A DNA stretch of 64,000 bases from Candidatus Kuenenia stuttgartensis (GTDB lineage: Bacteria; Planctomycetota; UBA11346), in contig CAMCMZ010000011.1 of NCBI GenBank assembly GCA_945876185.1, forward strand, positions 3,275 through 67,274, given 5' to 3'. The number at the start of each line of letters is the position of its first letter. Positions within the stretch are counted from its first letter, which is position 1. Shown here piece after piece: positions 31,160-32,080 of the stretch. Under the pieces are notes generated by a model that saw only the letters and a program-made list of their open reading frames with translations, made no database searches and was not told the DNA's origin. Position numbers and translations under genes: made by a program.

Positions 31160-32080
31160 TCAATTCGCAGGTATTAAGGGATTTGCCTGACGTTCCCAAT
31201 GAGGGATCCCTGTGCCAACCGACATATCCAAAAAAATGTTATTCATTTTTCGTGGATAATTTAATTCTTCGGCTGGAAGAGGCCTGTTCCAATCATAATG
31301 ATGGTAGCAACGGATTATAGGAACTTCACTAGAGGCAAATGCGGCACCGAAATCTGCTGGTTTCAATTGTGAACTGGGTGTTCCGGCAAGATTGCCGAAT
31401 GCCTGCTGGTTCCTTTTTCCATCTTGCCAATTTCTCTTTTCTATTGGCAATATGATCTTTGAGTATCCATCTATCAAATTGTCGGGGTCGAGCGAGAAAT
31501 CTAAGTTTCTATAAAACGCATTGACTAAATTCGGGGCAAATTTTTTGCCCGCGCCACCATTTAGGTATGAAAGCGGCACTTCATCAACTGCTGAACTAAA
31601 TTCGTACATGTAACTGCAACCCTTTTCCCAAATTTGCTCATATTTATCCCACGCGGTTCTCCTACCCATAGATTGATTGGTGCCTTTGGTTTTATCGAAT
31701 GGACACAAAAAGGATTTTTTCCCAAATCCGGCATTCAACAAATCCATTACGTTCGCCGGGGATTTTTCATCATTTTCTAAAGAATATGCACCGATTCCAA
31801 TCGCCAGTTGCCTGAGATTATTCGAACACTTGATCCCGTTCGCCATCGAGATCACGGCCGTAGTCGCCGGAAACGCCAACGCGGCAAGGATCCCGATGAT
31901 CGTGATGACGATCAGCATCTCAATCAGGGTGAAGCCGGCGACTGGGCGATTCCGATTTGATGGAGCCGAGAAAACCGGCGAGAGCGCCCCAGATGCAAGG
32001 CGGGAGGAGGGAGTTTGGCAGCGCCAAATGACCGAGGACCAACGCCGCAGATGGGGTGCTATCGCCGGTTTTCGGGTCAT
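31160..32080 (-). CDS. Prepilin-type N-terminal cleavage/methylation domain protein (DUF1559-like pseudopilin) with a PRE-expanded leader
   Basis: It carries the G|FTLIEMLIVITIIGILAALAFP class III signal. The body is low GC (~38-42% in counted lines). The only in-frame start is ATG 32080, which overlaps the ldcA stop as ATGA. PRE-5 lies between that ATG and the cleavage motif. Confidence 0.75.
   Translation of the reverse strand: MTRKPAIAPHLRRWSSVIWRCQTPSSRLASGALSPVFSAPSNRNRPVAGFTLIEMLIVITIIGILAALAFPATTAVISMANGIKCSNNLRQLAIGIGAYSLENDEKSPANVMDLLNAGFGKKSFLCPFDKTKGTNQSMGRRTAWDKYEQIWEKGCSYMYEFSSAVDEVPLSYLNGGAGKKFAPNLVNAFYRNLDFSLDPDNLIDGYSKIILPIEKRNWQDGKRNQQAFGNLAGTPSSQLKPADFGAAFASSEVPIIRCYHHYDWNRPLPAEELNYPRKMNNIFLDMSVGTGIPHWERQANPLIPAN
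31971..32072 (-). repeat. PRE-5: 102-nt palindromic repeat element, ccgg-arm variant, inside the pseudopilin leader
   Basis: The 21-nt arms are aaaaccggcgagagcgcccca and tggggtgctatcgccggtttt, changed on both sides relative to the canonical arms. The central hairpin is tttggc/gccaaa. It starts 4 nt after the ldcA stop in gene polarity. Confidence 0.9.

Follow-up and report, generated by a model that had tools for sequence, protein, structure and literature searches.

The locus described here raises the question of how a palindromic repeat came to lie inside the leader peptide of a prepilin-like protein, and whether the gene that received it still gives rise to a mature product. It was found in a 64,000-nt stretch of DNA (positions 3,275 to 67,274 of contig CAMCMZ010000011.1, assembly GCA_945876185.1, filed as Candidatus Kuenenia stuttgartensis). 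The whole of this stretch is called the window throughout the paper. Two genes of the minus strand are concerned, namely ldcA, encoding an LD-carboxypeptidase of the Peptidase_S66 type with S66 N- and C-terminal domains (32077..32976, 299 aa), and downstream of it an open reading frame (ORF) for a pilin-like protein that carries a class III signal peptide (31160..32080, 306 aa). The 3' end of ldcA reads GCA TGA, and its A together with the following TG forms the ATG of the pilin-like gene, resulting in an ATGA overlap (32077..32080, minus strand) of the start codon (32080-32078) with the ldcA stop codon TGA (32079-32077). Copy 5 of a repeat family called PRE (31971..32072, minus strand, 102 nt), co-oriented with both genes, is located between this ATG and the G|FTLIEML cleavage motif. 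An initial annotation had placed the element there on the basis of the letters alone, and both its in-frame position and the ATGA overlap were confirmed, the latter also for the two syntenic orthologues, L004 and L006, which were used for comparison.

Copy 5 occupies codons 3-37 of the pilin-like ORF and encodes codons 4-37. It is read in frame, and the 34 residues added by it, KPAIAPHLRRWSSVIWRCQTPSSRLASGALSPVF, are exactly those proposed initially. Its perfect 12-bp terminal inverted repeats (GAAAACCGGCGA/TCGCCGGTTTTC) reach from 31970 to 32073. The leader-coding region (31934..32080, minus strand) consequently comprises 49 codons, i.e., MTR, the 34 element-encoded residues and SAPSNRNRPVAG, and ends at Gly-1 of the G|FTLIEM motif, the codon of which is 31936-31934. 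The prepilin N-terminal cleavage/methylation motif G|FTLIEMLIVITIIGILAALAF (31871..31945, minus strand, residues 46-70) was recognized by PF07963 N_methyl with 35.2 bits (cutoff 21.2), and TIGR02532 scored 29.8 bits (cutoff 16.3). With Gly-1, Phe+1 and Glu+5, followed by a hydrophobic helix of approximately 21 residues, the protein shows the features that define type IV pilin-like proteins. The more specific name DUF1559-like had to be given up: PF07596 (DUF1559, SBP_bac_10) reached only 17.2 bits, covering residues 84-100, at a cutoff of 23.3, and PF07963 and TIGR02532 were the only models to pass. The closest homologues (P0002, P0003, P0005, P0006) also carry PF07963 as sole domain. Judged by these models, the protein is best described as a generic prepilin-type protein with a C-terminal domain that matches no named family, and membership in DUF1559 is not demonstrable. 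The view that ATG 32080 is the sole in-frame start held for the region between element and cleavage site, where no ATG, GTG or TTG was found. Further upstream, an in-frame TTG within ldcA (32135..32137, minus strand, 19 codons 5' of the ATG) formally opens the ORF but is an unlikely start. The first in-frame start codon 3' of the element (ATG, 31916..31918, minus strand) is Met+6 of the mature protein and lies already past the cleavage site.

Comparison with relatives indicated on which branch the element was acquired. The ldcA-pilin junctions of L004 and L006 are devoid of the 102-nt block, and so is an outgroup contig, so that the empty site asked for in the initial annotation was indeed found. 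L004 is collinear with the window (PatA_N-PatA_N-ldcA-pilin-PRMT-HTH-...-HemN), and the closest pilin-like homologues, P0002 (60% identity) and P0003 (55% identity), are both found in the same gene context. Length and stop position of ldcA are identical to those of the orthologue without the element. In the outgroup contig, where ldcA is 57% identical, an 8-nt spacer separates ldcA from the pilin-like gene, and the leader is MRRG|F (4 aa); another relative has the leader MPQRLNG|F. An equally long leader in orthologues lacking a PRE had been named as evidence that would speak against an insertion, and the leaders found there measured 24, 24 and 4 aa compared to 49 aa in the window. Since the three close pilin-like proteins are roughly equidistant (64/60/59% identity) and two of them are without the element, a single gain on the branch of the window is the most parsimonious solution on sequence grounds, with the insertion as the derived state. 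A metagenome scan using the pilin alignment matched the generic FTLIEMLIV motif in 80 unrelated N_methyl loci and yielded no new orthologous junctions.

Why the element is found at exactly this place became understandable from the other members of the family. The window holds six PRE copies, including copy 5. An exact 20-mer from the element detected 24 further loci in the related metagenome-assembled genome (MAG) CAZZJC01/GCA_964654285.1, in addition to one unrelated chance match. The loci L004 and L007-L031 all belong to this assembly, and the L004 genome carries at least 25 PRE copies. All 27 full copies aligned at 102 nt in a single register without gaps, which disproved the initial assumption that copy 5 deviates from a usual length of 100 nt. 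For 25 of the 27 full copies, the element is preceded at a distance of 0-11 nt by the end of a co-oriented ORF with 100 or more codons. The spacing after the stop codon is 3-5 nt in 20 of them and exactly 4 nt, the mode, in 13, while random positions in the same DNA meet the 3-5 nt spacing 0.7% of the time. The usual position about 4 nt past a stop, as claimed before, was thus strongly supported. The sequence of the spacer between stop codon and element is variable. With a spacing of 4 nt, the base of the hairpin formed by the element lies at about +11 relative to the ribosomal P site during termination. Orientation within the PRE family strictly follows that of the upstream gene, and the family is anchored to stop codons. 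Copy 5, which begins 4 nt past the ldcA TGA in ldcA orientation, occupies the canonical site of the family, and it falls inside the pilin-like ORF because the ATG of the next gene overlaps the targeted ldcA stop. Any family member inserted 4 nt past an ATGA overlap would extend the downstream ORF in frame.

Among approximately 32 PRE copies examined, copy 5 is the only intragenic case in a conserved protein. Other copies with apparent read-through (L010, L011, L013, L014, L016, L017) were rejected as intragenic, the downstream starts being located 2-12 codons past the element in these loci and 2-19 codons past it over all apparent read-through cases. The same holds true for "hybrid" copies, which had looked like insertions in long reverse-strand ORFs: those ORFs are without Pfam domains, and the copies are full elements, into which about 105 nt are nested, after normal stops. 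A function in stop codon read-through, similar to a SECIS-like "UGA + hairpin" arrangement, was also dismissed. TAA and TAG are found as upstream stops too, the read-through frame contains a stop in 7 of 27 copies, and in copy 5 this frame carries a TAG.

The family is held together by its secondary structure. In the consensus hairpin, derived from 26 distinct full copies, 97.4% of the cells are paired, and 13 of 35 pairs show compensatory double changes, with none of 500 shuffles reaching the observed values. Shifting the pairing partners by 1-3 columns lowered the pairing to 42-58%. By this covariation PRE appears as a selected hairpin. Compared to the consensus, copy 5 differs at left-arm positions 5, 6, 7, 10 and 13, each with a complementary change in the right arm. 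Because these stem changes are compensatory and the same variant is found in L010, i.e., in a different genome, copy 5 represents a subfamily rather than a decayed form of the element. A single private substitution was found in columns that are otherwise conserved. A T5 run follows the hairpin in most copies, TTTTC in copy 5, and the U-tract itself pairs with a 5' A-tract. The simple terminator scanner used accepts loops of 3-8 nt only, which places the long PRE hairpin outside its scope. Rfam gave no match at gathering threshold for the whole window. As a side observation, a near-invariant pyrimidine tract, ACTCCTTCCTCCCGCC, is found at element positions 59-74 (e.g., 31999-32014 of the window, minus strand) in a largely unpaired internal loop. 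It is CCUCC-like and resembles an anti-Shine-Dalgarno sequence, and the opposite strand, GGGAGGAAGGAG, is strongly Shine-Dalgarno-like.

What did the insertion do to the leader? Conceptual deletion of 31971-32072 gave MTRSAPSNRNRPVAG|FTLIEM with a leader of 15 aa, as the initial annotation had stated, and a predicted empty-site junction of GCGCATGACCCGCTCGGCTCCATC with ±2 nt at the join. The accompanying claim that excision restores the canonical leader found less support, as 24-aa leaders (MIKPVCGCMVVTRPGGRRARRSAG|F and MITPICGSNVDFRVGARFRRVGAG|F) have been annotated for the orthologues; in-frame ATG or GTG codons there would give 15-16 aa. The ends of the element can be placed to within about 1 nt on either side, and roughly half of the family carries a semi-conserved 3' tail. 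The exact form of the leader before the insertion consequently varies with these boundaries and with the assignment of the tail to the inserted unit. The median length of the leaders annotated in 55 homologues is 14 aa, and the window, with 49 aa, has the second longest. Unlike the other long leaders, this one contains no internal start codon able to shorten it. It comprises 8 K/R and no D/E residues, with a maximum hydropathy of 0.65 compared to 3.0 for the transmembrane helix. In characterised systems class III leaders of 6-26 aa are known, which are cut on the cytoplasmic side by prepilin peptidase, in agreement with the positive-inside rule (PMC4471445). The open frame itself is no evidence for selection, because the frame used is free of stops in 26 of 27 copies and the length of the element is a multiple of three (3 x 34 nt). 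Of the forward frames, two are free of stops in 26 copies each and the third in 20.

The explanation we favour, though we regard it as no better than evenly balanced, is that the insertion was tolerated, i.e., that the 49-aa leader is still made and removed with expression being reduced. A mobile, hairpin-forming PRE inserted about 4 nt 3' of the ldcA stop, co-oriented with ldcA and inside the start region of the pilin-like gene, extending the leader from roughly 15-24 aa to 49 aa, with the ORF remaining open automatically. The 34 extra residues, which are basic, non-acidic and non-hydrophobic, would be located in the cytoplasmic leader that is predicted to be cut after Gly-1, leaving the mature protein unchanged. 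Translation might proceed via termination-reinitiation coupling with ldcA at the overlapping AUG. With a ribosome at the ldcA UGA the hairpin base would be found at about +11 from the P site, and, from general knowledge of the ribosomal mRNA channel, 2-3 weak A-U pairs would have to melt for reinitiation. Expression would probably be lowered. In line with a functional gene, all family-invariant residues of the pilin-like protein are kept, no frameshifts or stop codons were found in its ORF, and lineage-specific replacements amount to 17 for the window versus 22 and 32 in two relatives, i.e., no acceleration of the rate was visible. Removal by prepilin peptidase may be the reason why the element survived, as we infer from the composition and position of the leader. 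We are aware of the fact that several observations speak against this explanation. The excision leader of 15 aa is plausible, however, it is not identical to any leader observed and differs from the annotated 24 aa. The 49-aa leader is hydrophilic and basic as expected, but with about twice the documented range it is not short. An intact ORF with conserved residues would equally be expected if the insertion is recent and the gene silent already. Moreover, the hairpin of copy 5, behind which UUUU is found, begins 8 nt past the A of the AUG, so that blocked initiation or transcription termination is quite possible. With -51.1 kcal/mol alone (about -55 kcal/mol in context; z = -5.2 versus shuffles) it ranks 5th of 27 in stability at a family median of -46.1 kcal/mol; a weakened hairpin as an adaptation to translation was not seen for copy 5 among the 27 copies. 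The orthologous junctions carry no unusual structure (z = +1.0 and -0.6).

These latter observations fit the view that the insertion silenced or crippled the pilin-like gene, with the ORF being intact only since the event is recent and the element serving as a terminator-like 3' hairpin for ldcA. The hairpin would either terminate the transcript or hide the stretch directly behind the AUG, and the frame would have stayed open as a mere consequence of the 3n length and the lack of stops. We consider silencing a possible explanation which nevertheless falls short of being probable. It requires no selection on the frame, and the position of an undiminished hairpin, the single private substitution, which fits a young insertion, and the leader beyond the documented range all agree with it. 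On the other hand, the preserved residues and the unchanged rate do not point to a dead gene, other copies sit between co-directional genes (e.g., the copy at 60684) and thus do not obviously end an operon, and the ATGA coupling geometry could permit re-initiation. A third explanation, that the element was ancestral to the window, L004 and L006 and was mostly lost from the orthologues by internal deletion, with their 24-codon leaders as footprints, is very unlikely. With 24 aa the orthologous leaders exceed those of the outgroups (4-7 aa) in length, and the L004 leader DNA TCTGCGG..TTGCAT..GGTGG resembles the inner stem of the element, with 2.7% of shuffles exceeding its score. However, this score only just exceeds that of 95% of the real 72-mers taken from the locus, the similarity for L006 is not significant (31% of shuffles as high), the part that matches is read in another frame, and several deletions in two lineages would be needed instead of one insertion. 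The candidate remnants in the orthologous leaders, marginal for L004 and not significant for L006, were treated as chance.

Two further possibilities concern the start of translation and the assembly. Translation might now start at Met+6 (ATG 31918-31916), yielding an unprocessed, membrane-anchored protein without Gly-1, Phe+1 and Glu+5. This is the first start codon past the element, and a signal anchor could be provided by the hydrophobic helix that remains; yet in the orthologues this Met is kept as a residue of FTLIEM and not as a start, no Shine-Dalgarno-like sequence is found beyond the GAG of the motif, and the product would be without the residues defining a type IV pilin-like subunit. 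We consider such a start highly improbable. That the junction is an assembly artefact caused by a wrongly joined repeat is hardly conceivable. Repeats do break or mis-join metagenome assemblies, and L002, the locus from the independent assembly of run ERR3719150, ends within the element. The contig of the window corresponds to ENA ERZ27280287, and the second source is the Logan assembly of ERR3719150. The identical junction, including the private stem variant and the private substitution G37C of copy 5, was found in the MEGAHIT-type contig ERZ27280287, in the NCBI record and in the Logan assembly of ERR3719150, and on either side the unique flanking sequence is collinear with that of the orthologue. 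A more far-reaching proposal would have PRE placed by a measurement of distance from the terminating ribosome, either through translation-linked insertion or through strong selection for a mobile module that ties the termination of translation to the formation or stability of the transcript 3' end, with the ldcA-pilin coupling as a structure-gated switch and the longest known processed class III leader as a result. We regard this combination as unlikely. Tolerance of the insertion remains the explanation that we prefer.

The remaining PRE copies of the window are placed as follows. On the minus strand, the copy at 54..155 lies 7 nt past the TGA of a co-oriented 316-aa ORF. On the plus strand, the copy at 13734..13835 lies 5 nt past the TAA of a co-oriented 615-aa ORF, that at 28543..28644 3-4 nt past the TGA of a HemN-like gene, and that at 60684..60785 8 nt past the TGA of a co-oriented 330-aa ORF, with the next co-directional gene 33 nt further on. 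The exception is the copy at 14788..14889 (plus strand), which has no stop of a long ORF upstream and is found about 82 nt past the stop of a minus-strand gene, in reverse orientation to it. In the convergent intergenic region by the HemN-like gene the L004 copy (L004:11064-11165) and the window copy (28543-28644) are oppositely oriented. The L004 copy is co-oriented with the left gene, 4 nt from its TGA, and, going by their positions, the two copies look like independent insertions or the result of turnover, each anchored on the stop of its own gene. No direct repeat indicative of a target-site duplication was found across the flanks of the PRE copies. On the left, the copies are flanked by the stop codon and a variable stretch of about 4 nt, on the right by CC or by a CCnGGRATTT tail.

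The semi-conserved tail, CCnGGRATTT(T), follows the T5 end of many copies (e.g., in the window at 28645-28660 and, on the minus strand, below 54, in L028 and L031 and at L004:11166-11180), and the unit is possibly about 115 nt long in one subfamily. It is absent from copy 5 and from other copies with variant stems (L010, L025). Long PRE forms of 170-201 nt, mostly 198-201 nt, contain a second palindrome (77-108 nt, about 105 nt) nested in the apical loop (L008:3492-3689, L012 and L014, both on the minus strand, L031:4729-4926, and L018:123-292). Four of these five begin 3-4 nt past a TGA. In L028:5688-6018 (minus strand) two tandem copies 229 nt apart have identical right flanks (ccgaggaatttttg), which suggests local duplication of element and flank. 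A protein search with concatenated four-frame translations of the element gave no matches, however, the known positive P0001 was also missed by it. Kuenenia genomes have a G+C content of about 41%. The L004 locus has about 70%, and the label of GCA_964654285.1, titled "uncultured Candidatus Kuenenia sp.", therefore appears doubtful. The best named ldcA homologues are labelled only Planctomycetes or Planctomycetota.

The surroundings of the insertion showed some further peculiarities. The body of the pilin-like gene (31160-31850) has a G+C content of 0.38-0.49 compared to about 0.66 for the window, while its leader and N-terminal helix are G+C-rich. The three pilin-like orthologues have a mean gene G+C content of 0.47, 0.55 and 0.50 within flanking genomes of 0.66-0.70, with the low-G+C regions at L004:8100-8825 and L006:330-1065. 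These values point to a foreign or recombined origin of the C-terminal domain or to unusual selection. Divergent beside ldcA, two very large PatA_N proteins (about 1,100-1,400 aa, with TPR, DZR and PQQ-like matches) are encoded in the window at 33140-37360 and upstream, with a counterpart at L004:1-6934. The order PatA_N-(ldcA)-pilin-like is kept out to distant relatives (L032, a JGI outgroup contig), and this may point to a functional connection of the PatA_N proteins with the pilin-like gene.

How does the insertion compare to known systems? Rickettsia palindromic elements (RPEs) are palindromic repeats of about 100-150 bp found in frame inside protein-coding genes with the ORF left open (review PMC10969869). 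Like these, copy 5 is an in-frame palindromic insertion that adds a peptide segment; it is a repeat without stops inside an ORF, and orthologues without the insertion exist (L004, L006 and the outgroup). The two are not related in sequence (no Rfam match), and the phyla differ. RPEs are often intragenic, while PRE was intragenic in 1 of about 32 copies, due to the start overlapping the targeted stop, and the peptide of copy 5 lies in a cleaved leader, whereas RPE peptides are part of the mature protein. In Enterobacteria and Pseudomonas, REP/BIME elements are extragenic palindromic repeats of the 3' untranslated region, which are co-transcribed with the upstream gene and in many cases located 1-20 nt from the stop; REPs of E. 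coli whose distance to the stop codon is below 16 nt can stall terminating ribosomes (PMC12306157). With a single 102-nt hairpin as its unit (198-201 nt in the long form) instead of a palindrome of 20-40 nt, PRE does not belong to the REP/REPIN type, whose palindromes often come as inverted pairs and have a cognate RAYT transposase. Its spacing is also far sharper (mode exactly 4 nt, about 75% at 3-5 nt) and strictly oriented. With MITEs, SPRITE, Correia and ERIC elements PRE shares terminal inverted repeats, a stable hairpin transcript and elements nested in one another, and with SPRITE also a T-run behind the hairpin. In its size (102 nt) and its terminal arms (11-20 bp) PRE corresponds to a MITE, and in outline it also recalls an intrinsic (Rho-independent) terminator. 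However, no target-site duplication is visible and no parent insertion sequence was identified (no RAYT search was made), and the strict orientation and distance relative to the stop are atypical of MITEs. The pilin-like protein shares Gly-1/Phe+1/Glu+5 and the helix with type IV pilin-like proteins, but its leader has 49 aa versus 6-26 aa (PMC4471445). By analogy, the insertion is a natural example of an event of a known, RPE-like kind and a rare accident in the PRE family, which calls for no new mechanism.

If the 49-aa precursor is processed, the locus would be a natural experiment showing that prepilin peptidase and SRP/Sec targeting tolerate a leader of about twice the documented maximum, and the cleaved leader would be a safe harbour for selfish repeats entering coding sequence. 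If the gene is silenced, it would demonstrate that a repeat targeting stop codons can break operons with ATGA-overlapping genes. The stop-anchored PRE family is arguably a more interesting object than the insertion itself. With its strict orientation, its start 4 nt past the stop codon, its covariation and its nested forms it may be useful for the study of REP-like and 3'-end biology in uncultured Planctomycetota-like bacteria.

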